Assembly (NCBI GenBank): GCA_963705505.1
Contig: CAVPJU010000010.1
Span: 64,001-128,000 of the forward strand
DNA length: 64,000 nucleotides
Direction of reading: 5' to 3'
Source of the DNA: an uncultured bacterium
GTDB taxonomy: Bacteria; Desulfobacterota_D; UBA1144; Nemesobacterales; UBA2774
This document shows, in pieces, positions 16,187-38,965 of this stretch. Positions within the stretch are counted from its first letter, which is position 1. The number at the start of each line of letters is the position of its first letter. The translations under genes and the position numbers were made by a program. The notes beneath the pieces were generated by a model. The model had not been told where the DNA came from, ran no database searches, and saw nothing but the letters and a program-made list of their open reading frames with translations.

Positions 16187-16381
16187 CCTCAGCTCATTCG
16201 AATTCATCTAAATTAAATTCCCATCATTTCCATTCTCCGGAACTCCCGGCGAACATTACCTCTCTTGGGTTACAGAGCCGCAGTCTGCGGCTTCTTCCGA
16301 CATGTTCTTACCCTTCCCAATACCATGAGTGAGCGCACACTCATTTTTTGTACTATTTTCTGACATACGACAGGGACGGGT

Positions 16382-16395
16382 TTCATTAATATCAA
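16382..16395. promoter_or_regulatory. Possible FNR/DNR-like box upstream of the nos cluster
   Basis: TTCAT-TAAT-ATCAA, one mismatch from TTGAT-N4-ATCAA, but in AT-rich DNA. Confidence 0.35.
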
Positions 16396-16415
16396 TCGTT
16401 CCCGATAGTTACGAT

Positions 16416-16431
16416 TGGCATTTAACTTTCT
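16416..16431 (+). promoter_or_regulatory. Degenerate sigma54 promoter for the nos cluster
   Basis: TGGCATTTAACTTTCT has a good -24 box and correct spacing, but TC replaces GC at -12; it sits just before the RBS of the first nos gene. Confidence 0.45.
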
Positions 16432-16459
16432 TAATAGTAATCGCAAAAGGAGGCTTTGC

Positions 16460-16867
16460 ATGTTGAAAAATAAGACTTTCTCATTCCCCGCCAGGATGCT
16501 GTTTATGATGCTGGTCGTTACTTTAAGTTTTCACATTTTTGTTCCCGTTTCCATCGGTTCGTCTGACGATGAGGTCGTGGAGAAGGGCCAAAAGGTTTTT
16601 CAGGACAAGGGATGTGTGGCGTGTCACTCGATAGGGAAGGGCAAGATCACAGGGCCCGACCTCTTCGGCGTTACTCAAAGGAGAGATCCGGCTTGGATTA
16701 AGAAATGGATCATGTCCCCCGATACCATGATCATGTCGGACCCCATCGCGAAAGAATTATTCAAACAATACATGGTTCCGATGCCTAATCAGGGGCTCAC
16801 GGACGAACAGGCGGACATACTCATTGAGTATTTCAAGTATCAAGATGCTAACAACGCAAAAAAGTAA
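16460..16867 (+). CDS. Monoheme cytochrome c (NosC-like), first gene of the nos cluster
   Basis: ATG 16460 after AGGAGG; signal/TM; CVACH, GPDL, VPMP. Confidence 0.88.
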   Translation: MLKNKTFSFPARMLFMMLVVTLSFHIFVPVSIGSSDDEVVEKGQKVFQDKGCVACHSIGKGKITGPDLFGVTQRRDPAWIKKWIMSPDTMIMSDPIAKELFKQYMVPMPNQGLTDEQADILIEYFKYQDANNAKK

Positions 16868-16906
16868 ATCTATGAGAAACCTTTTTACACAAGGAGGTAC
16901 GTAAAC

Positions 16907-18951
16907 ATGTCAGGATTGAAGAAGTGGATCACATTATTGCCGGTTTTTTTCTTGGCTCTGACTACGGTCTTTTTTACGAGCTGTAGGAATTCCGGTAGTG
17001 AGAAGCAGGCGAGTAAACAGGAGACCGTAACATGGGGATTGTCCGAGAGGCGGAGCAGGTAGCGGAGTCGAGGGGTCTTACGCCCAAGGACGTTGAGGCC
17101 GCTCTCAAGACTTACGTGCCTTCGGGGAAATATGACGATTACCTGATGTTTGCCTCCGGAGGACATTCCGGTCAGGTGTTCGTCATTGGCGTTCCTTCTA
17201 TGAGGCTCCTCAAAGAGATAGCGGTATTCACGCCGGAGCCCTGGCAGGGATTTGCGACCGGATCGAAGGAGTCGGACGATTTACTGAAAGAAGGCTATAT
17301 GCCCAACGGAAAAGACGGAAAGCTTACCTGGGCGGATACACACCACCCCGCTCTAAGCGAGACGAAAGGCGATTACGACGGACAGTTCTTATTCATAAAC
17401 GATAAAGCCAATGCGAGGATCGCAGTCATCGACCTCCGCGACTTTGAAGTAAAACAGATCGTAAAGACGCCGAACATGATCTCGGATCACGGCGCTACCT
17501 TTGTTACCCCGAATACCGAATACGTAATTGAGGGTTCCCAGTATGCAACGCCCCTTCCTTTCGAACGATACGCTCCTATGGATGAGTATAAGGACAAATA
17601 CAGGGGTCTCATTACGTTTCATAAGTTCGACAGGGAGAAGGGAAGGATAGACGAGTCCCAGTCATTCCAGATCGAGCTGCCTCCCTACTGGCAGGACCTC
17701 TGCGACGCCGGGAAGAAAGTCAGTGAAGGATGGGTATTCTGCAACTCCATAAATACGGAGCTCGCCACAGGCGGCATTGAGCAGGGCAACCCTCCCTATG
17801 AAGCGGGCGTATCTCAAAGAGACATGGACTATATGCACGTAATTAACCTGAACAAGGCCGTCGAGGTTTCAAAAGAGGCGGGCAAGACAGAGGTTATTAA
17901 CGGAATGAAGGTAATTCCGCTCAACACGGCTATCTCGGAAGGTCTTTTGTATTTCATACCGGAGCCCAAGAGCCCCCACGGAGTCGATGTAGCCCCGGGA
18001 GGAGATTATATAGTCGCTTCCGGCAAGCTCGACACACACGCGACGGTATATTCCTTCGACAAGATAATGGATGCCATGAAAAATAGCAAAATCGAGGGTA
18101 AGGATCCCTTCGGCGTCCCTGTACTGAACTTTAAGGATGTCGTCGCAGCGCAGGTCGAGATAGGCCTCGGGCCTCTCCATACGCAGTTCGATAACGAGGG
18201 TAACGCATATACGAGCGTTTTTATCGAGAGTACGGTTGCAAAATGGAAACTGGGCCCTCCTTACAATACGGGGGCAGACGCCTGGACCCTCGTTGAGAAG
18301 ATGCCGGTTGACTACAACATAGGCCACCTGGTTTGTGCGGAGGGCGATACCGTGTCCCCGGACGGCAAGTACTGTGTCGCGCTGAACAAGTGGTCCATAG
18401 ACAGGTTTACTCCGGTCGGCCCGCTGCATCCTCAGAATTTCCAGCTGATAGACATTTCGGGAAAGAAGATGCAGCTGCTTTACGATATGCCTATAGGCTC
18501 AGGCGAGCCGCATTACGTTCAGATGATCAAGGCTGACAAGCTCAAACCATGGCTCGTTTATCCGGAGGTGGGATTTGATCCGGCGACGATGAGCGTCAAT
18601 CCCGACGCGGCAAAAGCCGGGGGTGAGAAAGTCGTGCGGAGTAACGGAAAAGTCGAGGTATGGATGACCGCTATCAGGAGCCATTACAACCCCGAGCACA
18701 TAGTCGCGAGCGAAGGGGATAAAGTAATAATACATATCACGAGCGTGGAGCGGGCGAGGGACGCTACACACGGTTTCGCCATCGACGGCTACAACGTTAA
18801 CCTGAGCCTGGAGCCGGGTGAAAGCGAGACGGTGGAGTTCGTCGCGGACAAGGTTGGTGTGTATCCGTTCTACTGCACGGAGTTCTGCTCGGCGCTTCAC
18901 CTGGAGATGATGGGTTATCTCCTTGTTGAGCCAAAACAGCCAAAGTCATGA
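16907..18951 (+). CDS. nosZ: Clade II (Sec-dependent, predicted lipoprotein) nitrous-oxide reductase; apparent 1-bp deletion near 17045
   Basis: ATG 16907 after AAGGAGGT gives MSGLKKWITLLPVFFLALTTVFFTSC (no twin-Arg). Main ORF 17032-18951 has SGGHSG, DTHHP, PHG, GPLH, IGH, EPH (CuZ) and HGF...CTEFCSALHLEM (CuA). Confidence 0.95.
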
Positions 18952-18957
18952 ACTACT

Positions 18958-19011
18958 GAGGGCGCCCCATCCGGACCTTTAGTCACGGGAAGTGAAGGAG
19001 GGGGCGTCCTC
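18958..19011 (+). other. Stem-loop immediately after nosZ
   Basis: GAGGGCGCCCC...GGGGGCGTCCTC inverted repeat, no U-tract. Confidence 0.55.
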
Positions 19012-19045
19012 GGTTCTAACCCAAAACGGAATAAGGAGGTTTGTT

Positions 19046-19415
19046 ATGAAAAAGTTAATAGCGCCGTTTTTACTTGTAACTTTGTTAGTGTTAGCGGGCG
19101 CCGTTTACGGAGCCCAAAATGCAAGAGACTGCCCAGTCGTGGCAGAAGCAGGCAAACGATACCAGGGCAGCTGTTATGAAAGTCTACGGCGAGCTCGAGA
19201 AGCTGGATGTCAAGTCAGCAGCCGATGCGAAGGATCTTATTGCCGATGCCGTCGCCCAGCTCGGCGAAGGGGATAAGTACCTTAAGCAGGGGGACGAAGC
19301 CATGAATAAACAGGATTGGGAAAAGGCTAATTACGGTTATAACATGGCATGGCAGTATTACGTAAAAGCCGCAACATCCGGATTAAATGCAAAGAGAATT
19401 TTAACCGGACAATAA
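19046..19415 (+). CDS. Secreted alpha-helical hypothetical protein (about 122 aa); apparent extra A near 19116
   Basis: AAGGAGGT RBS and signal MKKLIAPFLLVTLLVLAGAVYGAQ; joins ORF 19119-19415 if one A of CAAAAT is removed. Confidence 0.7.
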
Positions 19416-19548
19416 AAACTCAGGAGAACGGCGGTTCTCCCATACGACTGGGGACGCTCTTGAATAGCGGATATTTTAGAGTATTCCCCGCCGGTTGTTC
19501 AGAAGGGCCGATCTGAATACGATGTTATTACGAACGGAGGTTTAAAAA

Positions 19549-20202
19549 ATGAAAGAAAACGAATTGATATTCGGGCCGCGAATACCGAAGGAGCTGTGGG
19601 AGAAGGAGAGAAAGAGGTTTCTTGTTCCTTCGATCGTCCTCGTCGTTGCCGCGGTGCTGCTTTTCATCTCGATATTTCTCCCTTATTGGAAACTTACACT
19701 TTTCGCGCCTCAGTATCCTCAGGGTCTCAAAGCCAGTATGTACGTAAACAGGCTTGCGGGGGATATTCAGGAGATAGACGGGCTCAATCACTATATAGGA
19801 ATGAAGCCCATGGACGAGGCTGCCGTGCTCGAACGCACGCTCAGCATATTCATGATCATCGGTATAGCGCTCCTCATCGCGGGGGCCGTATACGTGCACA
19901 GCCCGATTGCGCTTTTCCTGTGCATCCCGGCGGTGCTTTACCCCGCGTTCTTTCTGGGCGACCTCTATTTCTGGATGCGGACCTTCGGCACGAACCTTAA
20001 TCCGCACGCCCCTTTAAGCAGTGCGATAAAGCCCTTCGTACCACCCATACTCGGCGTGGGCCAGATCGCACAATTCAAGACTATCGCGAGCTGGGAGATA
20101 GGTCTCTATATGTCTATCGCGGCTTCGGTACTGATTGTCATAGGCCTCTACTTTCATCGTAAAGCTTATAAGCCGTTAATAGTAAATGAAGGCGTCAGGT
20201 AG
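19549..20202 (+). CDS. nosB: Clade II nos-associated membrane protein (NosB-like)
   Basis: PYW..TL.APQYPQGL, EIDGLNHYIGM, NLNPHAP, FVPP..G..Q; about 4 TM. Confidence 0.8.
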   Translation: MKENELIFGPRIPKELWEKERKRFLVPSIVLVVAAVLLFISIFLPYWKLTLFAPQYPQGLKASMYVNRLAGDIQEIDGLNHYIGMKPMDEAAVLERTLSIFMIIGIALLIAGAVYVHSPIALFLCIPAVLYPAFFLGDLYFWMRTFGTNLNPHAPLSSAIKPFVPPILGVGQIAQFKTIASWEIGLYMSIAASVLIVIGLYFHRKAYKPLIVNEGVR

Positions 20203-20228
20203 AGAAAGGTGTAAATCCCGGGTGACCC

Positions 20229-21629
20229 GTGACTAAATATTGCCTTCTACATTTTTCCACGATCGTTATTCTTGCCCTCTCCGGAGCTGTGAACGGAGCG
20301 GCTGTCGCCAGGACAATCCATGTCTCACCGGACGGCCCCGTAAGATCAATTACTGAGGCTATAGCTTCTGCTGAGAGCGGTGATACCATACGCATCCTGA
20401 AGGGAGACTATAAAGAACATATAGTAATCAACAAGACTTTAACAATTATAGGAGAGGGTTATCCCCGCATAGACGGCGGGGGGAAAGGAGTCGTCGTTTT
20501 AATAAAAGCCCCGAGTACCGTATTCAGGGGTATTCATGTGACGGGGAGCGGCGACAGCCTGAACCTTGAGGACGCTGGTATTATCCTCGATTCCGCACAC
20601 GGGAGCGTCATAAAAGAAAACCGGCTCGATGATGTGCTCTTCGGTATATACCTCAAAAACTCTCCCGACAGTGTAATAGAAAAGAACGTCGTCGAGGGCA
20701 AGCGGCTTACACTTCCCGAACGCGGCGACGGAATAAAGCTCTGGTACAGCTCAGGGACGAAGATACTCTATAACCGGGTCCTCCACACTAGGGACCTTGT
20801 TATTTGGTGGTCGAGCAATACGCTTATAAAAGGGAATACCGTCGAGGAAGGAAGATACGGACTTCATTACATGTCGAGTAACCATAACAGGTTCGAGGAC
20901 AACATTTTCAGGAATAACTATGTGGGCGGGTTCCTCATGTATAGCAAGGGGATTGAGTTTTACAGGAATAGGTTCGTCAGTAACCGCGGCACGGGGTCGG
21001 GCTACGGAGTCGGGTTCAAGGACCTCGACGACGTAGTAGCCAAAGACAACCTTATCGCGGACAACCGCGTTGGAATCTTTCTCGATAACTCGCCCTACCT
21101 CATCGATTCGTGGAATAATATAAGCGACAACGTTATAGCTTTCAACGACATAGGCGTCTCCCTCATGCCTTCGATAAGGAGGAACGCTTTTCACAAGAAC
21201 AGCTTCGTAGATAACGACGAGCAGGTGGAGATAAGGGGAGGGGGAGAGCTTGCAGGGAACGAATGGTCCAAGGACGGCAGCGGGAATTACTGGAGCGATT
21301 ACATCGGATATGACGAGGACGGGGACGGGATAGGAGAGATACCCTACAAGTCCGAGAGCCTCTTCGAGAGCCTTATAGACTCGAAGCCCGAGCTCAGGAT
21401 ATTCGTGTTCAGCCCTGTTGCGAAGGCAATAGAGCTCGCTTCTCAGGCGTTTCCCGTGATCAAGCCCGAGCCCAAGCTCACGGACGACTATCCGCTCGTC
21501 AGCTCGGCGATACCGCCTGACCTCAGGGCAGGCGGGAGGGAAAGGGAGTTGTCGCCGAGGCTTCTTTTCCTGTCCCTCTCTATGGTGATGCTTCCCCTGA
21601 TCTTTTACGGCTACATTATGAAACGGTAA
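20229..21629 (+). CDS. nosD: NosZ maturation protein NosD
   Basis: Beta-helix repeats, RGDGIKLWYS, RYGLHYM, GNYWSDY.GYD.DGDGIG; extra C-terminal TM. Confidence 0.93.
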   Translation: MTKYCLLHFSTIVILALSGAVNGAAVARTIHVSPDGPVRSITEAIASAESGDTIRILKGDYKEHIVINKTLTIIGEGYPRIDGGGKGVVVLIKAPSTVFRGIHVTGSGDSLNLEDAGIILDSAHGSVIKENRLDDVLFGIYLKNSPDSVIEKNVVEGKRLTLPERGDGIKLWYSSGTKILYNRVLHTRDLVIWWSSNTLIKGNTVEEGRYGLHYMSSNHNRFEDNIFRNNYVGGFLMYSKGIEFYRNRFVSNRGTGSGYGVGFKDLDDVVAKDNLIADNRVGIFLDNSPYLIDSWNNISDNVIAFNDIGVSLMPSIRRNAFHKNSFVDNDEQVEIRGGGELAGNEWSKDGSGNYWSDYIGYDEDGDGIGEIPYKSESLFESLIDSKPELRIFVFSPVAKAIELASQAFPVIKPEPKLTDDYPLVSSAIPPDLRAGGRERELSPRLLFLSLSMVMLPLIFYGYIMKR

Positions 21630-21642
21630 ACGGGAGCTTGAA

Positions 21643-22542
21643 TTGATTGAGATTAAGAACGTAACGAAGCGTTTCGGAAAGCTGACTGCAGTCGATTCGG
21701 TGAGCTTCAGGGCTGAAAAGGGTGAAGCGGTTTCCCTCCTCGGCGCGAACGGCGCCGGAAAGAGCACGCTTATCAAATGCATACTCGGGCTCCTCGATTA
21801 TACGGGCGAGATTACGGTGAGCGGGCTCAGGGTGAAAGACCACCCGAAGGAGGCGAAGTCCCTAATCGGATACCTGCCGCAGGAGCCTCTTTTCTACGAT
21901 ATGCGCACACTCGATATAGTACGTTTCTTCGCGCGGCTCAGGAAAATTGACGAGAGGGGTTCATTGTCGGTCCTGGAGAAAGTGGGGCTTGGGGAGCACT
22001 CTTCCAAATACGCTTCAGAGCTTTCGGGAGGCATGAGGCAGCGCCTCTCTTTCGCTATAGCGCTTCTATCAGAGCCTATGTTCCTGATACTGGACGAGCC
22101 CACTTCCAACCTCGATGCTCACGCGCGCGCTGAATTCCTCAGGCTAATCAAGGAATACAAGGAGAACGGTAAGACGGTGATCTTTTCCTCGCACAGGCTC
22201 GACGAGGTGGACTATCTGGCTGACAGGGCGGTCCTGATGAAAGACGGCAGTGTCGTCATGGACGAGGAGCCGCACAGGCTGAGGCAGTCCCTCGGGCTCG
22301 GCACGAAGATGAATATCGCTGTCCCTGAGGAGTATGTCACACTGGCGTATTCGGCGTTCGCCGGTGCCGGCATAATAGTTCACGGCAGAAACGGAAGGGG
22401 CTTCCTCGTGGAGGTGAAGAGCGGGGACAGCCTCCATCCTCTGAGGGAGCTGATGTCGAGAGACATACCCGTCCTCGGGTTCAGCGTCGAGGAGCCTACC
22501 ATGGAAAATATACTCGAAGGAGCGGGAAAAGATGGAGCTTAG
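21643..22542 (+). CDS. nosF: ABC ATP-binding protein NosF
   Basis: GANGAGKS, LSGGMRQR, ILDEPTSNLD; between nosD and nosY. Confidence 0.88.
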   Translation: MIEIKNVTKRFGKLTAVDSVSFRAEKGEAVSLLGANGAGKSTLIKCILGLLDYTGEITVSGLRVKDHPKEAKSLIGYLPQEPLFYDMRTLDIVRFFARLRKIDERGSLSVLEKVGLGEHSSKYASELSGGMRQRLSFAIALLSEPMFLILDEPTSNLDAHARAEFLRLIKEYKENGKTVIFSSHRLDEVDYLADRAVLMKDGSVVMDEEPHRLRQSLGLGTKMNIAVPEEYVTLAYSAFAGAGIIVHGRNGRGFLVEVKSGDSLHPLRELMSRDIPVLGFSVEEPTMENILEGAGKDGA

Positions 22543-23371
22543 AAATATTCTCATACTGGCGGGGAAGGAAACGAGGGAGTCGCTCAAGAACAGGTGGTTC
22601 GTTTTATATACCGTCTCTTTTTCCGTCCTCGCCGTGCTCATCTTTTCTATAGCGCCCGGGAGGGGCGAGATCACGGGCATATCGGGCTACGGCAGGACGG
22701 CCGCGAGCCTGGTCAACCTCGTGCTTCTCTTTGTCCCGCTAATAGCGCTTATAACCGGAGCGATAAGCATATCCGGGGAGAGAGAGAACGGAACGCTGCA
22801 GTACCTGCTCTCGCACCCCGTAACCAAATCCGAGGTGTTCGTGGGCAAGTTCTGCGGGATACTCATCCCGATCTGTTTTTCAATTTCGCTCGGTTTCGGG
22901 CTCGCCGGTATAGGAGTCGCGCTCAGAGGCGGGAGCGGGAACTCGGCGGAGTTCATACTGACTGCGCTCCTATCGGGGCTCCTGGCTGCGTCCCTGCTGA
23001 GCGTGGGGTTTGTCGTCTCGGTGTTTTCGGGCAGGGCTTCGAAGGCGATAGGCGTCGCGGTGTTCCTCTGGCTCCTTTTTATCGTTCTCGGAGACCTCGG
23101 CATCATGGGCACAGCTGCAGCGATGGACCTCGGCATAAAGCAGGTCTTCGTGCTCGCGCTGCTAAACCCGGCGGAGGTGTTCAAGATCGCTTCCGTGCTC
23201 GTGCTCAGTCCGCGGTTCGAGATACTGGGCCCAGTCGGAGTTTACGCCGTCAGGACGTTCGGCAGGGAAGGGGTGGTCTATCTGCTCCTCTCCGTCATGG
23301 CGCTATGGACCATCATACCGTTCGTATATGCATTTATAACTTTCAGCATATTCAGGAGGGAAGAAGCATGA
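22532..23371 (+). CDS. nosY: ABC permease NosY
   Basis: RTAASLVNL, PLIAL, ISGERENGTL.YLLSHP, LLNPAEVF. Confidence 0.88.
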   Translation: MELRNILILAGKETRESLKNRWFVLYTVSFSVLAVLIFSIAPGRGEITGISGYGRTAASLVNLVLLFVPLIALITGAISISGERENGTLQYLLSHPVTKSEVFVGKFCGILIPICFSISLGFGLAGIGVALRGGSGNSAEFILTALLSGLLAASLLSVGFVVSVFSGRASKAIGVAVFLWLLFIVLGDLGIMGTAAAMDLGIKQVFVLALLNPAEVFKIASVLVLSPRFEILGPVGVYAVRTFGREGVVYLLLSVMALWTIIPFVYAFITFSIFRREEA

Positions 23372-23802
23372 AATACTTGCTCATACTGCTTGTGCTCCTG
23401 GGTTTCGCCGCCTGTAAGGATAAAATCGATACCGGGCCTCATATTATTCATTACGGGGAAGATGTCTGCGAGAGGTGCAAGATGATTATAAGCGACAAGC
23501 GTTTTGCCGCCCAATACATCACGGAGAGCGGCGAGGCTAAAAAATTCGACGATATAGGGTGCATGATGGAGGCGCTCAAAGAGAAAAACAAGGACGGTGG
23601 CGGCGTGCTCGCCGTCTATGTCACCGACTACGTCACCGGGGAATGGATAGACGGCGGAAAGGCTTTTTATCTCAAAAACACGGAGCTCAAGACCCCTATG
23701 GGGTACGGTATTGCAGCTTTCGGAAACGAGGAATCGATGCGGGCGAGCCCATTTTATAAGGACGGGCGGGCGCTCGGGGGAATCGATGACCTCCAGAAAT
23801 AA
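23368..23802 (+). CDS. nosL: Copper chaperone lipoprotein NosL
   Basis: ATG overlapping the nosY stop; lipobox FAAC; CERCKMII, FDDIGCM, TPMGYG. Confidence 0.9.
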   Translation: MKYLLILLVLLGFAACKDKIDTGPHIIHYGEDVCERCKMIISDKRFAAQYITESGEAKKFDDIGCMMEALKEKNKDGGGVLAVYVTDYVTGEWIDGGKAFYLKNTELKTPMGYGIAAFGNEESMRASPFYKDGRALGGIDDLQK

Positions 23803-30150: not shown

Positions 30151-31761
30151 TTATACAGTTTTGCCGGGCGCTGCCCCCGCGGCGATGATCCGCGCGAGTA
30201 ATGTATTAAGCACTTCTCGCCCGGGCCTGTTTGTATCAATTTCAAAATAGAAGCGGGCATTAATCTCATCGGGCTCTTCCCATTCCGATATGAATTTGTC
30301 CAGTATCGAGGCCCTGGCGTCAGACACCGATGTCCCTTCCTTCTCCCTTTTGAGGAGCCTCTCTTCGATTACGCTTACAGGGGCGGCAGTCTCAATAAAA
30401 TAAACGTTCACCCCCCTCCGCTCCGCCTCACGCGAGAGGATGTCCCTCCGTTTGCGCTTGGAAAAGCTCGCGTCGAGTATGACGGTGCCGCTTACCTCGC
30501 TCTCGTTAAGTGCGCGTGATATTATCTCCCCGTAAGTCCTCTCCGTTATATCCCCCGTATATATGCCGCCTCCCCATTCCTCGTATCGCCTTTCGCCGGG
30601 CCGTGTGCCCGTGATCTCCTTTCTCACCGGGTCGGAGGATACGATCCGGCATGAAAGCTCCTCCCCCAGCATGGCCGCGAGCGTCGATTTCCCCGTACCT
30701 ATGACGCCGAAAGTGACTATAACCGCCGGGGCTGAGCCGAAGAGGGCGTACCTGAGCGCGAGCCTGAAATACCTTTTAGCCCGCTCCAGGGACATTTTCT
30801 TTTCGTCATCAGGCACTTCGGGCTCAAATGCCCTTATGCTCTCGACCTTCCCCCTTACGAAAGCCCTGTAGCATTTATAAAAGTCCATTACGTCATAGAT
30901 GCCCGTATCGTTCATCGCCGCCGAGATTTCATTGACTATAAAACGCGAGAGCCCGCAGTACCCGTTATAGTCGAGGTCCATGGCGAGGAACGCCACATCC
31001 GAAGCGGTGTCTATGTACCTGAACCTCTCGTTGAACTCTATGCAGTCGTAAATGCATATATCGTCCGTGCCTATGTTTATATGGTCGAGGTGGAGGTCGC
31101 CGTGGCAGTCCTTTATGAAGCCGCCTTCCATGCGCTTAAGAAATATTTCACGCTTATTCTCGAAGAAGAGTTCGTTGTAATACTTTATTGCGTCGTATGC
31201 GGTTTTGGAGATCGTCTTATCCGTGAATTTCGCTGAGAGCGCAAGGTTCTCGTCTATGTTCACCCTTACCCTCTCGGGGCGTCCGTACACGAGGACTTCC
31301 TCCTGCCGGGGCTGCCCGTTATAAAATTCCACGAGCTTCCGCGCGAGCCTTCTTAAGTCCTCTTCTCCGGCTTTACCTTTCCGCAGCAGGTTCATGAGGA
31401 ATTTCTGCTCCGGGAGCTTCCTCATCTTGACGGCGTATTCGACGGCGTCTCCCGGCCCGCCGATCGAGAACAGCCCGTCTTTGAGCGTTATTTCCTCGAC
31501 GCCCAGGTATACGCCCCCGCAGAGCCTCCTGTTGAGCCCGACCTCCAGTGTGCAGAAATGCCTCCTCTTTTCGAGAGTGCTGAAGTCGAGAAAACCGAAG
31601 TCAACCGGTTTTTTCACCTTGTAGACATATGGCGGGACGATGAAAACGTCAGACGCGTGTGTCTGGACGTGGCGGACCCTCGAGGGTCTGTGAGGGTACG
31701 ACGAGGGTTCGAGAAGAAAATCTATTAAGTCCTGCCTTCTGTAGCTTTCACATTTAGGCAT
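30151..31761 (-). CDS. APH-like kinase fused to P-loop (AAA_33/gluconate-kinase-like) domain, Rv2004c-like
   Basis: QTHAS, YKVKKPVDFGFLDFSTL, CHGDLHL, DCIEFNERFR, GVIGTGKST, SDA. Confidence 0.9.
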   Translation of the reverse strand: MPKCESYRRQDLIDFLLEPSSYPHRPSRVRHVQTHASDVFIVPPYVYKVKKPVDFGFLDFSTLEKRRHFCTLEVGLNRRLCGGVYLGVEEITLKDGLFSIGGPGDAVEYAVKMRKLPEQKFLMNLLRKGKAGEEDLRRLARKLVEFYNGQPRQEEVLVYGRPERVRVNIDENLALSAKFTDKTISKTAYDAIKYYNELFFENKREIFLKRMEGGFIKDCHGDLHLDHINIGTDDICIYDCIEFNERFRYIDTASDVAFLAMDLDYNGYCGLSRFIVNEISAAMNDTGIYDVMDFYKCYRAFVRGKVESIRAFEPEVPDDEKKMSLERAKRYFRLALRYALFGSAPAVIVTFGVIGTGKSTLAAMLGEELSCRIVSSDPVRKEITGTRPGERRYEEWGGGIYTGDITERTYGEIISRALNESEVSGTVILDASFSKRKRRDILSREAERRGVNVYFIETAAPVSVIEERLLKREKEGTSVSDARASILDKFISEWEEPDEINARFYFEIDTNRPGREVLNTLLARIIAAGAAPGKTV

Positions 31762-31782
31762 CGGTTCCCGCGGAGGACTTTA

Positions 31783-32691
31783 TTACGGCCTTAAGGACAG
31801 GACCGAGCAGGGAGATTCGGGGATCACCCTTTCCGTGACGCTTCCCAGTATGAGCCTCTTTAAACCCGTCCTCGCGTGCGTGTTGATCACTATGAGGTCT
31901 ATATTGTTTTTCGACGCATAATTAGCGATCGATATGGCGGGGCTGAGACCGTGAATGACTTTAGTCGTTATTTCGTTTTTGACCGCCGTACCGCGCGTGG
32001 TTTCGTATTTCGTCTTTATCTTCCCGACCCTCTCCCGGAGCTCCTTTACCGATTGCTTTATGACGATGTCGAGCGCTCCCGCGGGTATGTCCTGAGCGTA
32101 CATATCGAGCCTCAGCGCGTATACCGCGGTCACCTGAGCGCCTGCCAGGCCCGCGATGTCGAGCGCGTAGATGAGCGCGGTCTCGTTGTCGTCCGCAAGG
32201 TCTATGGGTACGAGTATGTTCCTGAATTTGATTTCCTGTTGGGGGTCGGTTCTCTTGACGGCGAGCACGGGGATGTGTGAGCTCTTGAGCACCTTCACTG
32301 TTTCGCTCCCGACCATCACGCTCTCCATGATTCCGTGTCCCTGTTTCCCCATGACTATAAGGTCCGCCTTTTTCCGGAGTGAGAATTCCCTGATCTTGTC
32401 GCTTGGTATTCCTTTCAGAATCTCGCCGTCGAATTTTATCCCGGAATGCAGCAGCTCGCTCCGCACCTCGACGAACCTGTCGCTCACCCTCCTTTCCACC
32501 TTCGACTGCCATTCACGGAATTCCTCGTCCTCTTCCCGGAGCGATTCGAAGAGCAGCTGTACCGGAAGCGGTATGACGTGCACCCCGATGATCTCGGCCC
32601 CCGAGAGGCCGGCAATGTATTTCGCGTATCCCAGAGCAAGCTCCGCTTCATCCGATCCGTCAGTCGCCCAGAGAATCCTTTTTATCTCCAT
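31783..32691 (-). CDS. Universal stress protein (tandem domains)
   Basis: ILWATDGS, DLIVMG..G.G, LGSVTERV. Confidence 0.92.
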   Translation of the reverse strand: MEIKRILWATDGSDEAELALGYAKYIAGLSGAEIIGVHVIPLPVQLLFESLREEDEEFREWQSKVERRVSDRFVEVRSELLHSGIKFDGEILKGIPSDKIREFSLRKKADLIVMGKQGHGIMESVMVGSETVKVLKSSHIPVLAVKRTDPQQEIKFRNILVPIDLADDNETALIYALDIAGLAGAQVTAVYALRLDMYAQDIPAGALDIVIKQSVKELRERVGKIKTKYETTRGTAVKNEITTKVIHGLSPAISIANYASKNNIDLIVINTHARTGLKRLILGSVTERVIPESPCSVLSLRP

Positions 32692-32797
32692 ATTCGTTTA
32701 CCTTTCGAGCAGTATTTTTCGTTTCTCCCTTTTATAGTCCCTAAGACAAAGGTGTTTATTCTACCACATTAAATTCGGATCCGACGGAAGCGTTTCG

Positions 32798-33247
32798 TCA
32801 GAGCACTTTGGATTTGCTGCTGAGGGCCATGGCGAGGTTTACGAGCTCGGTCGCCACGACGACTATAAGGTCGTCGACGGATACTATGCCTTTTAACTTA
32901 TTTCCCCGTGTGACCGGGAGCCTCCTTATCGAATTCTCGGAAAGTATCCGCAGCATCTCGAATATATCCGCATCCTCGTCGATCATTATGAGCTCTTTCG
33001 TCATGACTTCTTCGACGGTCACTTCATCGGGATTTTGCCTCTCGGCCATTGCCGACACTACGAGGTCCCTGTCCGTTATTATGCCCACCGGCCTCGATTC
33101 GCTGTCTATAACGACGAGCGCGCCCACGTCCTCGTTCATCATCATATAAGCGGCCTCCGACAGCGGGGACGAAGGAGAGACCGTTACGACGTTCTTGTTG
33201 ATTACCTCGTTCAGAAGCTCGGACTGGCTCTTTCTTTTTGCGTTCAT
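32798..33247 (-). CDS. CBS-pair protein (Rv2626c/Hrp1-like)
   Basis: M...DVGALVV, GIITDRDLV, IRRLPV, GIVSVDDL. Confidence 0.9.
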   Translation of the reverse strand: MNAKRKSQSELLNEVINKNVVTVSPSSPLSEAAYMMMNEDVGALVVIDSESRPVGIITDRDLVVSAMAERQNPDEVTVEEVMTKELIMIDEDADIFEMLRILSENSIRRLPVTRGNKLKGIVSVDDLIVVVATELVNLAMALSSKSKVL

Positions 33248-33304: not shown

Positions 33305-33320
33305 TGCAACATTAATGCCA
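33305..33320 (-). promoter_or_regulatory. Sigma54 promoter for the CBS-USP-kinase-ATPase operon
   Basis: Minus strand TGGCATTAATGTTGCA (GG-N10-GC), 57 bp before the CBS start. Confidence 0.8.
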
Positions 33321-33390
33321 TTGCGAGGACGGGCATATAACACCGGGAAACCCGTACTATTCGAATAAACACGGTGCGGATTATGTCGTT

Positions 33391-33407
33391 TGTCGGATTT
33401 TCAGACA
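33391..33407. promoter_or_regulatory. Putative enhancer-binding-protein site
   Basis: TGTCG-GATTTTC-AGACA imperfect 17-bp palindrome between two divergent sigma54 promoters. Confidence 0.5.
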
Positions 33408-33458: not shown

Positions 33459-33474
33459 TGGCACCGTTATTGCC
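33459..33474 (+). promoter_or_regulatory. Sigma54 promoter for the 77-aa gene
   Basis: TGGCACCGTTATTGCC matches TGGCAC-N5-TTGC. Confidence 0.75.
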
Positions 33475-33503: not shown

Positions 33504-33737
33504 ATGTCCGATTACGGCACGATTTACATGATCGATACGCAGTATAACGCGGAGAGGGACGCGACCGAGGTCTCTTTCGGGTATATAGAGAAGGAGGAGC
33601 AGGTGAAGGGCAGGATCAGGACGCTCAGGATCATAGTCAATGTGCCGGGTCACAGGGATGATAAAAAGGGCGCTGTCGACGAGGGGCTCAGGATTGCGAG
33701 GGAGTTCGTTTCGAGGGCCGCTCAGGCTCCCATTTGA
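33504..33737 (+). CDS. Small hypothetical protein (77 aa)
   Basis: GGAGG RBS before ATG 33504 (MSDYGTIYMIDTQY...); sigma54 promoter upstream. Confidence 0.72.
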   Translation: MSDYGTIYMIDTQYNAERDATEVSFGYIEKEEQVKGRIRTLRIIVNVPGHRDDKKGAVDEGLRIAREFVSRAAQAPI

Positions 33738-33757: not shown

Positions 33758-34756
33758 CTATTTGCCCGATATCCCTTCGAGCGCTTTTAATTTCAATTTA
33801 TCTCCGAGCGCGATCAATGTGTCTCCCGGGTTTATGACCGTCCTCGAGGTCGGATTGAACTGCATCGTGCCGTCGGGCTTTTTTACGGCTACGATAATGA
33901 TCCCCAGGTCACGGCCTATGCCCGATGCCTCGAGCGTTTTCCCCGAGAGCGCCGAGCCCGGGCGTATCTCAATTTCCTCGATCTGAATCTCGAGGTTCCC
34001 GCTCTTAGTCGCAAGCTCGATAAAATCGACTACGGCGGGCTTGAGTATCATGTTCGCTATCCTCAAGCCTCCAGTGTGGTAGGGCGATACGACCCTGTCC
34101 GCGCCCGCTCTCAGTATCTTCCGTTCGGAGCCTTCGTCACCCGCTCTCGTATAGATGAGCAAATGCGGGTTCAGCACACGGGCGCTCAAAACGACGAAAA
34201 GGTTTTCAGCGTCGGTGGGAAGGACGGATATGAGTCCCCGCGCCCTTTCGATGCCGGCCCTCATCAGCACTTCGTCTTTTGTAGCGTCGCCCTCGATCAA
34301 GACCAGCTCTTCATTATCCTCAATATCGACGGGGTCTTTTTCTATCGCTATGACATCCATGCCCTTCGAGGAGAGCTCCTTTACGACGGTCTTCCCCATC
34401 CTGCCGTAGCCGCATACGATGTAATGGTCTTTCAGATATTTTATTCGTCTTTCCAATCTCGACCTCCCGATTATCTGTTTCAATTCACCTTCAAGGACGA
34501 TCTTAGCCAGGGCGCTCAGCAGATAAAGGATTGTGCCGACACCGAGCGTAAGAAGCACCATCGTAAAGACCTCGCCCGCGGGCGTGAGGTCGTGCACCTC
34601 TCCGTACCCGACCGTCGTGAGGGTAGTCACGGTCATAAAGAGGGAATCACGGAAATTCCACCCCTCAATGACCATATAGCCGGTCGTGCCGATCGTATTT
34701 ATAAGAATTATCAGTAAAATAGGTATGAAGAGCTTTTTTCTGATTGCAGAAAACAT
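33758..34756 (-). CDS. Potassium channel with RCK (TrkA-N/TrkA-C) domains
   Basis: TLTTVGYGE selectivity filter, HYIVCGYGRMG, GDAT, TrkA-C tail. Confidence 0.94.
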   Translation of the reverse strand: MFSAIRKKLFIPILLIILINTIGTTGYMVIEGWNFRDSLFMTVTTLTTVGYGEVHDLTPAGEVFTMVLLTLGVGTILYLLSALAKIVLEGELKQIIGRSRLERRIKYLKDHYIVCGYGRMGKTVVKELSSKGMDVIAIEKDPVDIEDNEELVLIEGDATKDEVLMRAGIERARGLISVLPTDAENLFVVLSARVLNPHLLIYTRAGDEGSERKILRAGADRVVSPYHTGGLRIANMILKPAVVDFIELATKSGNLEIQIEEIEIRPGSALSGKTLEASGIGRDLGIIIVAVKKPDGTMQFNPTSRTVINPGDTLIALGDKLKLKALEGISGK

Positions 34757-34789
34757 CTTGCTCCGTCGAAACGAATTTCGTGTATAAGG

Positions 34790-35659
34790 CTACACGGGCT
34801 TTACGGTGATAACGGGGCAGGGGGCTTCCTGAACGACTCGTTCAGCGACGCTCCCGATGAAGTCCTCACGCCTGAATTTGTAGCCCCCGTATGTGTTCAT
34901 CATTATGAGGTCTATGTTCTTCCGTTTTGCGTAATCCACGATCCCGATCCAGGCGTTCCTAGCCGTCTCCACGGCGGTCTCTACCCTGTCCTCGAGCTTC
35001 GCTTCCTCCACCTGCTCGGTGAGCTTATTGTATGCGTCCCCCCTCATGAGCTCTACGAGCTTCGGAGGGTATTTCCCCTCTCCGGTCGCGACTATATTGA
35101 GGCTGTATATATCTGCGTCCAGGTCCTTCGCCAGACCTAACGCCAGCTGCAAGTCCCTCGACAGTATATTGTAGAGGTCAGTCGGGACGAGTATCCTTTT
35201 AATACCCTTGTGCGCGGCGCCTTTTCTCACTATAAGTATCGGTATCCTCGAGCGTCTCAGCACCTTGAGAGCGGTCGCCCCGAGTATGTTTCTCTCCTCG
35301 GCCCTCCCTTTCCCGAGAACTATGAGGTCGGCGTTTTCCTCCTCCCCCGCCTCTATAATCTTGAGGTAGGGCACGCCTTGAGTTATGAGCGTCCTGAAGC
35401 GGAGCCCTTTCGATTTGAGCTCCTCCGATATATTGTTGAGCCTGTCGCTGCCCTTGGATTCCTTTTCCTTTATCCAGTCCGCAAGGAGGTCGAGCTCCCG
35501 GGGCGGGAACTCATCGAGCGCCTTCACTTCGAAGTAGTCCGGAATGACGTATAGCCCTATGATCTCCGAGTCCAGGGGCCGCGCGATGTTCTCGGCAAAC
35601 GTGAGCGCGTCGACCGAATCCTTCGAGCCGTCTGAGGCCCAAACAATTTTCTTTATCAA
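34790..35659 (-). CDS. Universal stress protein (tandem domains)
   Basis: KKIVWASDGS, LGATA.KV, IGSVAERVVQEAPCPV. Confidence 0.92.
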   Translation of the reverse strand: MIKKIVWASDGSKDSVDALTFAENIARPLDSEIIGLYVIPDYFEVKALDEFPPRELDLLADWIKEKESKGSDRLNNISEELKSKGLRFRTLITQGVPYLKIIEAGEEENADLIVLGKGRAEERNILGATALKVLRRSRIPILIVRKGAAHKGIKRILVPTDLYNILSRDLQLALGLAKDLDADIYSLNIVATGEGKYPPKLVELMRGDAYNKLTEQVEEAKLEDRVETAVETARNAWIGIVDYAKRKNIDLIMMNTYGGYKFRREDFIGSVAERVVQEAPCPVITVKPV

Positions 35660-35755
35660 GATGAGATCCTCCTTGTCCGCATCGGTTTGGGTTTTATTTT
35701 AATCGATATGAGCGGCGTTGAAAACGCGGAAGACGTATTTTGTGATAATTCCGCA

Positions 35756-36361
35756 TCATTTTCCCGTTTTTTTATCCGGGAGAGGGACGGGTTTGGGGAC
35801 AGCGTTTTTCACCGGGGTTATCGTCATAAGGTAGGCGAATATAGCTTTAAGGTCTTCGTCACTGAGCTTCCCGTAATCCTGCCAGGGCATCGGCGGGAGC
35901 ACGTCCCTTTTGAAGTCTATATGCTTCCCGGTCCTCATCGTCTCTATGAATACCTGCTCCGTCCACTTCCCTATACCGGTCTCGGGGTCGGGCGTAATGT
36001 TTTTTGAGAATGTGAGCCCCCACGGGCCCGCCCATTCCGTCGAGTCGAGCGTGCCCAGGAACTCTATCCACTCCCCGGAGCCGACCTCGGCGTCCGGCAA
36101 ACGGGGGATCTCCGCGTCCTGGGGGTGGCCAGAGAGCCGCCTCTTCATATCGGGCACGGGGCCTTCTTTGGTCTCGATTAGCGGCGTGTGGCAGTAATCG
36201 CAGTTCCCTTCGGTGACGAGCTGCTTTCCCCTCTCCGCGTATTTGTTCCCCGCGGAGTACGCATCTTTTTCACCCGCTCCCGTCCGCAGGCATGTGATTA
36301 TGAAAAGGCACAACGTGGCCGAAATAACGGTCTTAATCATTGTCTTCATGCGGTTATCCAT
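35756..36361 (-). CDS. Periplasmic cytochrome c (one CxxCH; ADH/gluconate-DH cytochrome-subunit-like domain)
   Basis: CDYCHTP, LSGHP, GPWG, NITPDPETGIG.W, PPMPW, DEDLKAIFAYL. Confidence 0.88.
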   Translation of the reverse strand: MDNRMKTMIKTVISATLCLFIITCLRTGAGEKDAYSAGNKYAERGKQLVTEGNCDYCHTPLIETKEGPVPDMKRRLSGHPQDAEIPRLPDAEVGSGEWIEFLGTLDSTEWAGPWGLTFSKNITPDPETGIGKWTEQVFIETMRTGKHIDFKRDVLPPMPWQDYGKLSDEDLKAIFAYLMTITPVKNAVPKPVPLPDKKTGK

Positions 36362-36364
36362 ATC

Positions 36365-37279
36365 TCAGGGCTTAAATGCGAGAACGGGCGAGTGTGCTTC
36401 GCGTATGACCTTATCGGTTTCGCTGCCGAGTATTACCCTCTCGAGACCCTTCCTGCCGTGAGTGCTCACGGCTATCAGGTCAAAGCCGTTTTCCTGTGCG
36501 TAGTCGGTGATGGTAAGAGCCGGGCTTACGCCTGTAAGGACGACGGTCTCGACCTCGATACCCGCAGCCGCGTCATTGACCCGGGAGCATCCCGCCTTGA
36601 TCTCGTCCACCCTCCGTCTTAACTCATTTGAGGAGTGCGCCGTAAGCTCGTCCACGAGCTGAGGGCTTAGCTCGTAGACGTTTGCGTCTATCCAGAAGAC
36701 GTAGACGGCGGTTATGGAAGCCCCGAGCTTCGCGGCAAGGCCGATCGAGTACGATAGCGACGACTCGGCAGTGTCCGAGATATCGAACGGGACGAGTATT
36801 TTTTTTATATCGTATTCTTTTTTGTCGCTGTCCGGTTTGACCGAGAGCACCGGGACAGGGGAGTTCCTCAGCACCTTGAGCGTATTGCTGCCGAGAAGAG
36901 CGCTCCCTATGAGACCGTGGCCCTTCTTGCCCATAACGATTAGCTGGGCTCCCTCGCTGCGCGCCGTCTCTATTATCCAGTCTACAACGCTCCCCCTCAC
37001 GATTCTGGAGGAGATCCTCACACCCGGGTTTTCCCCTTCTATGCGCTTGAATTCGTTCCCGAACCTCTCCTCGGTCTTCTTGAGGATGTCCATAACAACG
37101 GTTTCATAGGTCGGGTAGAGGTCTGTTACGGGGATTTGTATCTCGCTCACGTGGAGGCACATGATCTCGGCAGAGAATTTACGTGCAAGATACAGTGCCA
37201 TTTTGAGGGATTCTTCCGCTTCCTTCGAGCCGTCCGTCGGCCAGAGAATTTTTTTAATGTCCATGTTTTCGCCGGTCAC
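36365..37279 (-). CDS. Universal stress protein (tandem domains)
   Basis: KKILWPTDGS, LIVMGKKG.G, THGRKG..LGSETDKV. Confidence 0.92.
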   Translation of the reverse strand: MTGENMDIKKILWPTDGSKEAEESLKMALYLARKFSAEIMCLHVSEIQIPVTDLYPTYETVVMDILKKTEERFGNEFKRIEGENPGVRISSRIVRGSVVDWIIETARSEGAQLIVMGKKGHGLIGSALLGSNTLKVLRNSPVPVLSVKPDSDKKEYDIKKILVPFDISDTAESSLSYSIGLAAKLGASITAVYVFWIDANVYELSPQLVDELTAHSSNELRRRVDEIKAGCSRVNDAAAGIEVETVVLTGVSPALTITDYAQENGFDLIAVSTHGRKGLERVILGSETDKVIREAHSPVLAFKP

Positions 37280-38139
37280 GGAGTCATGGTGATTACGGGG
37301 CAGTGAGACTCCTGTATAACCTTTTCCGAGACGCTGCCTATAAACTCCTTTTTGAACCTGCCTCCGCCGTAAGTCATTATAACAATTAAATCAGCTTTTT
37401 TGTCAAAAGCAAAGTCCACGATTCCGCGCCACCCGTTCACGGCTATGACGGTGTATATTTCGAGGTTGTCTTTCAGCCTGGTCGTGCCCACAGTCTCCTT
37501 TAATTCCCTGTGCGCGAATCCCCTCAACTGCTCGCCCAGCTCGGGCGGGTATTTCTGGTATCCTGTCTCGACGACGTTCACGACTTCGACGCGGGCGCCG
37601 AACGCGACCGCGAGTTGTATCGCGTAATCGAAGCTCCTTCCGAGCCCGTGGGAGAGGTCGACCGGGAGAACTATTTTTTTGATTGTCCCTTTGAATTTAT
37701 CCCCCCTGGCCGTCAGAACCGGGACCCTCGAAGTCCTCAGCACTTTAAGCGCAGTCCCGCCAAGTATAGTCTTCTCAACGGAGCGCCCCCTTCCGAGCGC
37801 TATCAGGTCTGCGTCCTGTTTAGCCGCAAAATTGGTAATGGTCTTCGAAGGGATGCCCTTTACTATATCGTATTCGAAGTTTATCCCCTTCTTCGAGAGG
37901 TCACGTTTGACCTTCTCCATCGTCTCCCTCCTCCCCGTAATGAGGTTGAGGTCTATCCAGTCGCGGAACTTGGCTTTCTCAGTCGGGGGGAAAAGGTTTA
38001 CGACCGTGTAGTATTCGGGGATTACCGAAATGCCGAGAATCTGGGAATTGAATTTAACCGATATCGCCTCGGCGATTTTAAGTGCATGCTCGGAGTCGCT
38101 CGTCCCGTCTGCTCCCCAGACGATCTTATTTATTTTCAA
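37276..38139 (-). CDS. Universal stress protein (tandem domains)
   Basis: KIVWGADG, LGGTALKV, IGSVSEKVIQESHCPV. Confidence 0.92.
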   Translation of the reverse strand: MKINKIVWGADGTSDSEHALKIAEAISVKFNSQILGISVIPEYYTVVNLFPPTEKAKFRDWIDLNLITGRRETMEKVKRDLSKKGINFEYDIVKGIPSKTITNFAAKQDADLIALGRGRSVEKTILGGTALKVLRTSRVPVLTARGDKFKGTIKKIVLPVDLSHGLGRSFDYAIQLAVAFGARVEVVNVVETGYQKYPPELGEQLRGFAHRELKETVGTTRLKDNLEIYTVIAVNGWRGIVDFAFDKKADLIVIMTYGGGRFKKEFIGSVSEKVIQESHCPVITMTP

Positions 38140-38206
38140 GGTGGCCTCCTCGTATTTTTCAGTCGGAGCGGGAGCCGCGCTTATGGCGACCCCGCCCCGG
38201 CGCCTG

Positions 38207-38662
38207 TTACTTTATATCGACCTTGATCTCTTTCGCCTTCGATTCGGCCGCCTTGGGGAGGTGGACTTCAAGTATTCCGTCCTTGAATTCAGCCGATATC
38301 TTGCTCTCCACGACCTTAGCTGGAAGGGTCAACGACCGGGAAAAGCTGCCGTACGACCTCTCGGAATAATAGTAGTCCTCTTCCTTGACCTCCTCTTCCT
38401 TCTTCACTTCCCCCTTGATCGTAAGCGTATTGTCCGATACCGAGATCTTTATGTTCTTCTTGTCTATCCCCGGCACCTCCGCCTTGACAACTATCTCGTC
38501 TGCCTTGTCGAACATATCGACAGCAGGGGAAACCGCCTCGAATTCAGTCATCCATTTAAACCTTGGGAATCTCCTTAAAAACCTCGACGGAAAATTTTCT
38601 TCGAACATATCCTCGAAGAACTTCTCCATACTCTTTGTCGGTTCCCATCTTTTTAGCGCCAT
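38207..38662 (-). CDS. Small heat-shock protein (Hsp20/alpha-crystallin)
   Basis: PAVDM, AEVPG, ERSYGSFSRSLTLP, AEFKDGILEVHLPK. Confidence 0.95.
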   Translation of the reverse strand: MALKRWEPTKSMEKFFEDMFEENFPSRFLRRFPRFKWMTEFEAVSPAVDMFDKADEIVVKAEVPGIDKKNIKISVSDNTLTIKGEVKKEEEVKEEDYYYSERSYGSFSRSLTLPAKVVESKISAEFKDGILEVHLPKAAESKAKEIKVDIK

Positions 38663-38705
38663 GATTCTGCCCTCCTGATAGTTGGATTTATATTAAATAA
38701 TTATA

Positions 38706-38721
38706 ATCAAGTTCCATGCCG
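38706..38721 (-). promoter_or_regulatory. Degenerate sigma54 promoter for the hsp20-USP operon
   Basis: Minus strand CGGCATGGAACTTGAT (GG-N10-GA), 43 bp before the ATG; 17-bp motif copies at 38797-38825. Confidence 0.55.
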
Positions 38722-38965
38722 TAAAAAGAACTATAGAATGTTTAGGGCACAATTGCGCGTATAATTTGAATTACGGCTATAATAATTGATGTCCGTTGTA
38801 TGATAATATGACAGAAATGGCGGCATATACATTCAGCGAGCGCTCCGGGTCATTGTCCCGGAGAGAAGCGAAAAACACCCGGGCGGGCCGCCACAATTTA
38901 TAATCCGGGGAGACTCGTACGGGCCTTGCATATTACGAAAGAATTGTATATTTCCGGGTGAATAA

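Follow-up and report, generated by a model that had tools for sequence, protein, structure and literature searches.

Clade II nitrous oxide (N2O) reducers are regarded as major consumers of a potent greenhouse gas, and what induces their nos genes is largely obscure. The question of how such a cluster is controlled is raised by a 64,000-nt stretch of DNA from an uncultured bacterium of soil or sediment (GenBank assembly GCA_963705505.1, contig CAVPJU010000010.1, positions 64,001 to 128,000), hereafter the window, in which a clade II nos cluster adjoins an island of genes for universal stress proteins (USPs), Hsp20, CBS proteins and ion pumps. Comparison of the upstream regions of these genes within the window and with those of related genomes identified a directional 24-bp element standing at defined distances from sigma-54-type promoters. 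Judged from sequence, four units at 16.3–38.8 kb, namely nos, CBS2-USP-AAA_33-ATPase, the small-protein gene sP2 and hsp20-USP-cytochrome-TrkA, likely share one module composed of a sigma-54 promoter and this enhancer.

A directional 24-bp element upstream of nos, CBS2/sP2 and hsp20

Related loci were collected by aligning NosL with 24 homologs and searching genome contigs, which yielded 80 loci with 10-kb flanks (L001 and following). The closest NosL relatives in the genome collection searched belong to metagenome-assembled genomes labelled Candidatus Dadabacteria or Thermodesulfobacteriota, with identities not exceeding 72%. The element spans 24 bp, TGTM-N9-KACA-N3-KACA, and is made up of an inverted TGTM/KACA pair and a third KACA one-third turn on. 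Three copies were found in the window: TGTA-N9-GACA-N3-GACA upstream of nos (16349..16372, plus strand), TGTC-N9-GACA-N3-GACA between the divergent CBS2 and sP2 promoters (33384..33407, minus-strand reading) and TGTC-N9-TACA-N3-GACA upstream of hsp20 (38790..38813, minus-strand reading). The element is directional: it faces the promoters of nos, CBS2 and hsp20, while that of sP2 is served by the CBS2 copy from the opposite side. The core TGT-N10-[GT]ACA was present in 13/13 orthologous regions, with its centre 58–64 nt from the downstream GG.

A 21-nt element matrix was built exclusively from 11 sites outside the window and run on both window strands (128,000 positions). Its three best matches were the three copies, at 16347 (nos, score 29.9), 33389 (divergent region, 21.2) and 38795 on the minus strand (hsp20 and oriented like it, 20.7), all exceeding the highest score obtained on 15 shuffles, of which the maxima averaged 13.8 and peaked at 16.9. 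The fourth match (48280, score 13.8) was at shuffle level with no sigma-54-like box downstream, and was rejected as a further element. A first-pass annotation of this DNA had described the element as a simple 17-bp TGTCR-N7-YGACA dyad and listed six of them. Their coordinates were correct, and the dyads at 16349, 33391 and 38797 correspond to the three top matrix matches, whereas those at 16286 (rank 181), 1071 (rank 92) and 38809 (rank 20, score 7.3) are at chance level. The dyad formula itself had to be replaced: with at most two mismatches it gave 108 window matches versus 61.6 expected, and is thus useless as a definition. The form TGT-N10-GACA occurred at 7 places in the window (11 strand matches) versus 3.39 expected, including 16349, 33391 and 38797, and a dyad search with an N9 instead of an N10 spacer returned nothing relevant.

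Searching the window and the 80 loci together (1,338,307 bases) with the 24-bp regular expression gave 21 matches, 19 of which have a sigma-54-like box downstream in their own orientation, 14 at 58–61 nt and five at 80–85 nt, the latter class comprising CBS2 in four genomes and hsp20. The two others are a match in L059 without any box, and one in L011 (1869, minus strand) lying 65 nt, as calculated by hand, upstream of an opposite-strand TGGCATCTGGATTGCT at 1925. In the window, the pattern has three matches versus 0.07 expected from 200 shuffles; as it was written after the sites had been seen, the clean tests are the non-window matrix and a cross-locus specificity test. For the latter, 151 GG-N10-GC boxes (at least 9/11 consensus positions) were collected in the 80 loci, and 13 of them were found to have an element scoring at least 13 at 20–130 nt upstream. 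Eight of these 13 pairs are matrix training sites, and the other five lie in two loci (10947 and 19113 on the minus strand in L011, and three in L070). Among the 136 boxes in 71 other loci, the top element score was 9.5. The element centre lies at about −84 or −105 from the expected transcription start, that is, within the 80–150 nt upstream at which inverted-repeat enhancers are looked for.

Canonical and candidate sigma-54-type promoters

The pattern TGGCAY-N5-TTGCH has three matches in the window (1172-1187, plus; 33305-33320, minus; 33459-33474, plus) versus 0.09 expected, a number reached by none of 100 shuffles. All three are intergenic and correctly oriented, lie 30–58 nt 5′ of a start codon and agree with 10–11 of 11 consensus positions, and each has GG and GC ten bases apart within TGGCAC-N5-TTGCW, the strict form of a sigma-54 promoter. 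The GG-N10-GC boxes that had been listed at 1172(+), 33320(−) and 33459(+) are therefore borne out.

Two of the canonical promoters are divergent. On the minus strand, TGGCATTAATGTTGCA (33305..33320) precedes the CBS2 operon and forms a block conserved in 4/4 aligned genomes, and on the plus strand TGGCACCGTTATTGCC (33459..33474) precedes sP2, with TGGCAC and TTGC invariant in 4/4 genomes. The CBS2/sP2 intergenic DNA of the window, L003, L004 and L005 was aligned (mean column identity of 70%), and exactly five conserved blocks were found: the minus promoter (TGCAACA.TA.TGCCA on the plus strand), the element (ATGTC..T.TGTC..ATTTT..GACA), AAAT...TTG, TGGCAC-N5-TTGC, and the ribosome-binding site and start codon of sP2. 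The element block is invariant in all four genomes and its flanks are variable. Its centre is 61 nt from the GG of the plus promoter and 80 nt from that of the minus promoter, the latter distance being 80–83 nt in the relatives. A sigma-70-like site returned by a simple scan (33402-33431) is not conserved in this alignment. The AAAT..TTG block (~33430-33445) lies between the element and the promoter, and is maybe a site for a bending protein. The sP2 protein itself is found at the same position in L003, L004 and L005 with 70–74% identity (tblastn). It has no match in Pfam or NCBIfam, and its Atlas look-alikes, scoring below 0.9, are leads only.

The nos promoter is non-canonical at −12. The box TGGCAT-N5-TTTC (TGGCATTTAACTTTCT, 16416..16431, plus strand) is separated by 30 nt from the start of the cytochrome c gene (16461), with the −24 GG 60 nt from the element centre, and its −12 dinucleotide is TC, which places it outside the strict definition. 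With 8/11 consensus positions, it belongs to the 59 sites of the window that score 8–9, out of 62 that score at least 8, and with one mismatch allowed the sigma-54 pattern has five window matches versus 3.73 expected, so that the window by itself gives the nos box no significance. Ten orthologous upstream regions, in all of which the cytochrome c gene lies 5′ of nosZ, could be aligned nearly gap-free from element to promoter, and the columns invariant in 10/10 are TGT, ACA, ACA, the AA of CAAT/CAAC, TGGCA and TT.C. TGGCAT-N5-TTTCA is retained in six close relatives (L002, L003, L004, L005, L007 and L009), while three distant genomes with NosL identities of 41–46% carry the canonical TTGC at the aligned −12 position, namely L011 (TGGCACCTATTTTGCT), L012 (TGGCATAGAATTTGCG) and L070 (TGGCATAAGGATTGCA). 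The sole difference between the 16-mers of L009 and L070 is the G/T of the −12 element. Because the box is column-aligned in 10/10 orthologs and canonical in the distant ones, it appears to be a lineage-fixed sigma-54 variant rather than a chance match, and probably works like a sigma-54 promoter although it lies outside the strict definition. No sigma-70-like promoter was found in 16000-17100. The conserved CAAT/CAAC block (16390-16395) lies between the nos element and the promoter and possibly binds a DNA-bending protein; its agreement with the IHF consensus is poor, and we make no claim for IHF there.

The candidate sigma-54-type promoter of hsp20, CGGCATGGAACTTGAT (38706..38721, minus strand), agrees with 7/11 consensus positions and has GA for GC at −12, which likewise leaves it outside the strict definition. 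A promoter matrix built from 17 promoters of relatives, which is biased toward the nos form since eight of these are nos promoters, ranked it ninth of ~128,000 window positions with a score of 8.7, below the mean of the shuffle maxima (13.7). In its favour, the box lies on the correct strand in the 140-nt interval that separates one of the three best-scoring elements from the start of hsp20, with its GG 85 nt from the element centre, and we regard it as a probable but unconfirmed sigma-54-type promoter. Of the two correctly spaced variant boxes noted in the first pass, therefore, that of nos is kept in aligned position throughout its orthologs, while that of hsp20 is unconfirmed by orthologs. 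A perfect TATAAT (38701-38706, minus strand) overlaps the −12 part of the hsp20 box, and overlapping sigma-70 and sigma-54 promoters are possible at this site; one sigma-70-like match nearby (38806-38779) overlaps the element itself. On the HlyD side of the 38.7–39.0 kb gap, the sole box-like site (38915) has no GG and was not accepted as a promoter.

The third canonical promoter, TGGCACGCAAATTGCA (1172..1187, plus strand), is the best box in the window with 11/11 consensus positions and precedes sP1, an open reading frame (ORF) of 72 amino acids (1235-1453, plus strand). Its upstream DNA contains no element, the best matrix score being 4.1 (rank 92), and no inverted repeat was found in 945-1180. 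Lacking the element, the sP1 promoter most likely answers to a different activator. The sP1 product is unrelated by sequence to sP2 and has no NCBIfam match, and its Atlas look-alikes are again below 0.9 and leads only.

Gene context, candidate activator and rival explanations

The nos genes form a same-strand run (16461..27408, plus strand) that is presumably a single transcript and consists, by Pfam assignment, of a cytochrome c gene (16461-16867), nosZ (17032-18951), three ORFs without a Pfam family, nosD, nosF, nosY, nosL (23368-23802) and genes for a TetR regulator, a CBS protein (CBS1), a USP, DUF2092 and DUF6515. NosZ scores 853 bits on the Sec-type equivalog TIGR04246 (cut-off 625) and 426 versus 625 on the TAT-type model, and together with NosD, the ABC ATPase, the ABC-2 permease and NosL this identifies a clade II cluster. 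Converging on it, the CBS2 operon (27445..33247, minus strand; Pfam and NCBIfam) encodes CBS2 (33247-32798), a tandem USP, an AAA_33 protein and a P2-type (Ca-like) P-type ATPase. It is followed by sP2 (77 amino acids, 33504..33737, plus strand) and by the hsp20 run (33758..38662, minus strand; Pfam), which includes three tandem USPs in the order Hsp20 (38662-38207), USP, USP, cytochrome c, USP and TrkA-type K+ channel; with intergenic gaps of at most 96 nt, the run is presumably an operon. Upstream of nos (2796-9299 and 12139-16186) are a system I cytochrome c maturation cluster (ccmA, B, C, E and F), a fused sirohaem/uroporphyrinogen-III gene and nifU-iscS, and the nos-upstream CBS, nifU and iscS genes are syntenic in L002, L007 and L009. 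No Rfam family was found across the whole window.

Synteny was evaluated by tblastn of 33 window proteins against L001-L012. Within contig reach, the order nos - TetR - CBS - USP - DUF2092 (- DUF6515) is kept in L002-L007, L009 and L010, and so are, beyond it, the converging ATPase - AAA_33 - USP - CBS2, then sP2 and TrkA - USP. The gene order of the CBS2 operon is also kept in L003, L004, L005, L007 and L012. This adjacency of nos and stress island across relatives indicates a feature of the lineage and not an accident of one genome. The CBS gene after nosL/TetR has a full module in L011 (10880-10962) versus none recognisable in the window (24410-24522), where no sigma-54 box was seen by eye and the matrix scans listed neither element nor box; the window CBS1 may be reached by read-through from nos or TetR.

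Just upstream of the nos element lies a near-perfect palindrome, TGAGTGAGCGCACACTCA (16325..16342, with the hairpin extending to 16344), and the T-run that follows it contains the first bases of the 16349 dyad. The palindrome GAGTG-N5-7-CACT (GAGTGAGCGC(A/T)CACTC) occurs 5–12 nt upstream of the nos element in eight genomes (the window; L002 at 2973, L003 at 3022, L004 at 3006, L005 at 242, L007 at 2978, L009 at 2993 and L070 at 4652), and its other matches are scattered. L009 has a second, partial copy beside the first. All eight genomes have a nos-linked TetR gene, which follows nosL except in L070, where it lies immediately upstream. The palindrome was found neither in L011, where TetR is lacking, nor in L012, of which the TetR is 49% identical. 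We consider the palindrome a candidate TetR operator. It could double as a weak hairpin after iscS (RNA fold of −8.2 kcal/mol, z of −2.1); that 16325-16344 is purely a terminator is doubtful, given the weak stem and the lack of a T-run after it in L070.

No Sigma54_activat domain was detected in the 62 ORFs scanned in the window, and no GAFTGA motif in its six frames, so the activator must lie elsewhere, as the first-pass annotation had supposed; the same 62 ORFs contain no Sigma54 domain. Among the 80 loci, GAFTGA was found in L011 only, in a regulator (355-1710) with Response_reg, Sigma54_activat (E 3.8e-64), AAA_lid_14 and HTH_8 domains. The regulator gene lies 1.4 kb upstream of the L011 nos promoter, and in front of it is the HATPase_c end of a histidine kinase gene, kinase and regulator together covering 2-1710. 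It falls below every NCBIfam equivalog cut-off, the best being AtoC with 365 bits versus 714, and GlrR giving 346.6 versus 763. As this regulator adjoins nos in one genome, we infer that its ortholog is a candidate for the element-binding protein. L011 is a closed chromosome (OZ244197.1), and its element is in its own orientation at three promoters: besides nos, the 10947 module precedes a CBS gene (10882-10962 region) and the 19113(−) module precedes a FixI-type ATPase gene with ccoNO, ccoP, ccoG and DsbD_2 (11411-19195). The fourth copy is reversed and stands before an outer-membrane beta-barrel gene (box at 1925). In L070, a bin labelled Spirochaetia with NosL 41% identical, the palindrome, the element and canonical boxes precede TetR (3940-4022), cytochrome c-nosZ (4652-4757) and a CBS gene (11938-12019), and cbb3 genes lie near these modules; the bin may be mislabelled, or else cluster and control region were transferred as one.

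In the mechanism that we propose, an NtrC-family response regulator encoded outside the window would bind the element as a dimer and, once phosphorylated by its kinase, would assemble into an active ring, which would contact the sigma-54 holoenzyme at the promoter and open the promoter with ATP. The ring would act from an element centred ~60 nt, or two helical turns further (~80–85 nt), upstream of the GG, and one central element would serve both divergent promoters at 33.3–33.5 kb. In the clade of the window, the nos −12 carries a fixed G-to-T change (TTTC), with distant relatives having TTGC. The inducing signal is probably oxygen limitation, by analogy: in L011 the same module precedes a cbb3 oxidase operon, and the island of USPs, Hsp20, CBS proteins and ion pumps resembles hypoxia regulons, the nearest described system, NmpR, being hypoxia-responsive. 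N2O, NO or redox state are possible alternative signals.

Several points weigh against a common module. The −12 GC dinucleotide is nearly invariant in characterised sigma-54 promoters, and it is broken at nos (TC) and at hsp20 (GA), where both boxes are at chance level on their sequence alone. The comparison of orthologous promoters covered the nos and CBS2/sP2 regions. Close relatives conserve the entire nos promoter and not just its elements, and orthologous sites share descent, so that site counts overstate the independent support. The search for a Sigma54 domain covered the 62 ORFs of the window and that for an activator gene the window and the 80 loci, and the genomes searched are relatives of no more than 72% NosL identity. 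Each promoter also has a single element, a 17-bp dyad plus the third half-site, with no second full copy scoring at least 14 beside any promoter, versus the two or three sites usual for NtrC-type activators (PMC11841059, in the part of the article available).

The broken −12 positions would be accounted for if sigma-54 dependence were limited to the three canonical promoters, the nos and hsp20 boxes being decayed or coincidental, with sigma-70-type promoters in their place and the element acting by another route or inert. The two boxes indeed resemble dozens of other window sites in consensus agreement, the hsp20 box scores below the mean shuffle maximum, and the perfect TATAAT lies on the hsp20 strand over its −12 region. 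We nevertheless think this explanation unlikely, as TGGCAT-N5-TTTCA is kept in six relatives and column-aligned with the canonical TGGCA-N6-TTGC of L011, L012 and L070, L009 and L070 being equal except for one base at −12, and as no sigma-70-like promoter was seen at nos and the one near hsp20 overlaps the element. The single dyad per promoter would instead be explained if the element were bound by a regulator of a class other than the enhancer-binding proteins, for instance the nos-linked TetR or a Crp/Fnr-type protein, with the sigma-54 activator binding elsewhere or acting from solution. A TetR gene is nos-linked in the window, L001-L007, L009, L010, L012 and L070, and a TTCAT-N4-ATCAA was noted by eye between the nos element and promoter (~16381-16394). 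A binder of this kind would leave the fixed distance to the −24 box (58–61 or 80–85 nt) and the fixed orientation in 19/21 occurrences without a reason; TetR has a better candidate site in the palindrome, L011 has elements and yet no TetR ortholog, a cupin gene following its nosL, and only CAAT/CAAC persists of the partly conserved FNR-like sequence. Such a binder thus seems improbable to us. The original, widest proposal, in which five promoters including that of sP1 and all six dyads constitute one regulon, can draw on the perfect 11/11 sP1 box and on a stretch near 1053 that by eye resembles the nos element with one extra base between the half-sites. It is very improbable in view of the background-level matrix scores at sP1, 16286 and 38809, the 108 loose-dyad matches and the absence of an inverted repeat in 945-1180. 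What is retained of that proposal is the module linking nos, the USP/CBS/ATPase operon, the ORF at 33504 and the hsp20 operon, which rests on ortholog conservation of promoters and element at nos and CBS2/sP2 and on the third-ranking matrix match at hsp20; sP1 keeps its canonical promoter and probably falls outside the regulon.

Comparison with known regulons

More broadly, and tentatively, we suggest that in this uncultured Thermodesulfobacteriota / Candidatus Dadabacteria lineage one NtrC-family two-component system together with sigma-54 could functionally replace a Crp/Fnr-type switch, with a 24-bp enhancer at fixed helical phase co-inducing the clade II N2O reductase, the cbb3 oxidase and a dormancy-like island of USP, Hsp20, CBS and ion-pump genes, and that the −12 G-to-T change may tune how tightly sigma-54 keeps the promoter closed. 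Among the papers listed by full-text searches, none describes in its title or abstract a clade II nos cluster under the control of sigma-54; the one paper that holds sigma-54, nosZ, clade II and promoter together has rpoN only as a quantitative PCR reference in its available portions, and the main text of a 2025 survey of sigma-54 regulons, in the portions available, makes no mention of nitrous, nosZ, cbb3 or Hsp20. If true, clade II nos clusters outside Campylobacterota would thereby gain their first defined circuit of transcriptional control. It would tie N2O respiration to a stress and dormancy gene set, suggesting N2O use within a low-oxygen survival programme, and the conserved non-canonical −12 box would be a natural experiment on sigma-54 promoter recognition. 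With the cis-element, the promoter type and a candidate regulator class defined, the regulation of nos in organisms that cannot be cultured can be put to the test in heterologous hosts.

The element resembles known enhancers in its half-sites. NifA recognises the upstream activating sequence TGT-N10-ACA (16 bp) and GlrR/QseF recognises TGTC-N10-GACA (18 bp), both of which, as here, consist of TGT(C)/(G)ACA half-sites in inverted arrangement and lie upstream of sigma-54 promoters; the spacing differs, being 17 bp here with a third half-site added, and the L011 regulator has a REC domain whereas NifA has a GAF domain. In gene content the island is akin to the DosRST regulon of Mycobacterium tuberculosis, in which the genes for several USPs, for a P-type ATPase, for a CBS-only protein and for an Hsp20 (alpha-crystallin) are clustered and co-regulated under hypoxia. 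DosR, however, is a NarL/LuxR-type regulator that acts at sigma-70-type promoters through a different palindrome, with no sigma-54 involved. The FixLJ-FixK and FNR-ANR-DNR systems of Proteobacteria follow the same logic as here, a high-affinity oxidase and N2O reductase being induced together at low oxygen; their Crp/Fnr-type activators bind TTGAT-N4-ATCAA near −41.5 of sigma-70 promoters, whereas here −24/−12 promoters are combined with a distant element. Both the hypoxia-induced USPs of DosRST and the control of cbb3 oxidase by FixLJ-FixK/FNR are referred to in the available part of PMC11841059.

Closest to the present module is the regulon of NmpR, an NtrC-like and hypoxia-responsive protein of Myxococcus xanthus, which, in the part of the article available, acts through sigma-54 promoters on genes for a CBS protein, a USP and a P-type ATPase with cbb3, and on those of hemN and a hemerythrin (PMC11841059). 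The promoter type and the targets overlap with CBS2, the USPs and the P-type ATPase of the window and with the CBS gene and the FixI-type ATPase with ccoNO, ccoP and ccoG of L011. The two systems differ in that no nos cluster and no Hsp20 appear among the NmpR targets in that part of the article, in which the Nmp sensor is a protoglobin kinase (PMC11841059). The NmpR site is GCGCA-N5-TGCGC in two copies 14–15 nt apart (PMC11841059, same part); this consensus is not present here, a lone GCGCA being found inside the nos palindrome, and since it differs from the 24-bp element, the two regulators need not be the same. By this analogy, the module of the window would be an NtrC-family/sigma-54 regulon of which the NmpR hypoxia regulon is the nearest known analogue, made unusual by the membership of nos and by its fixed non-canonical −12 box.

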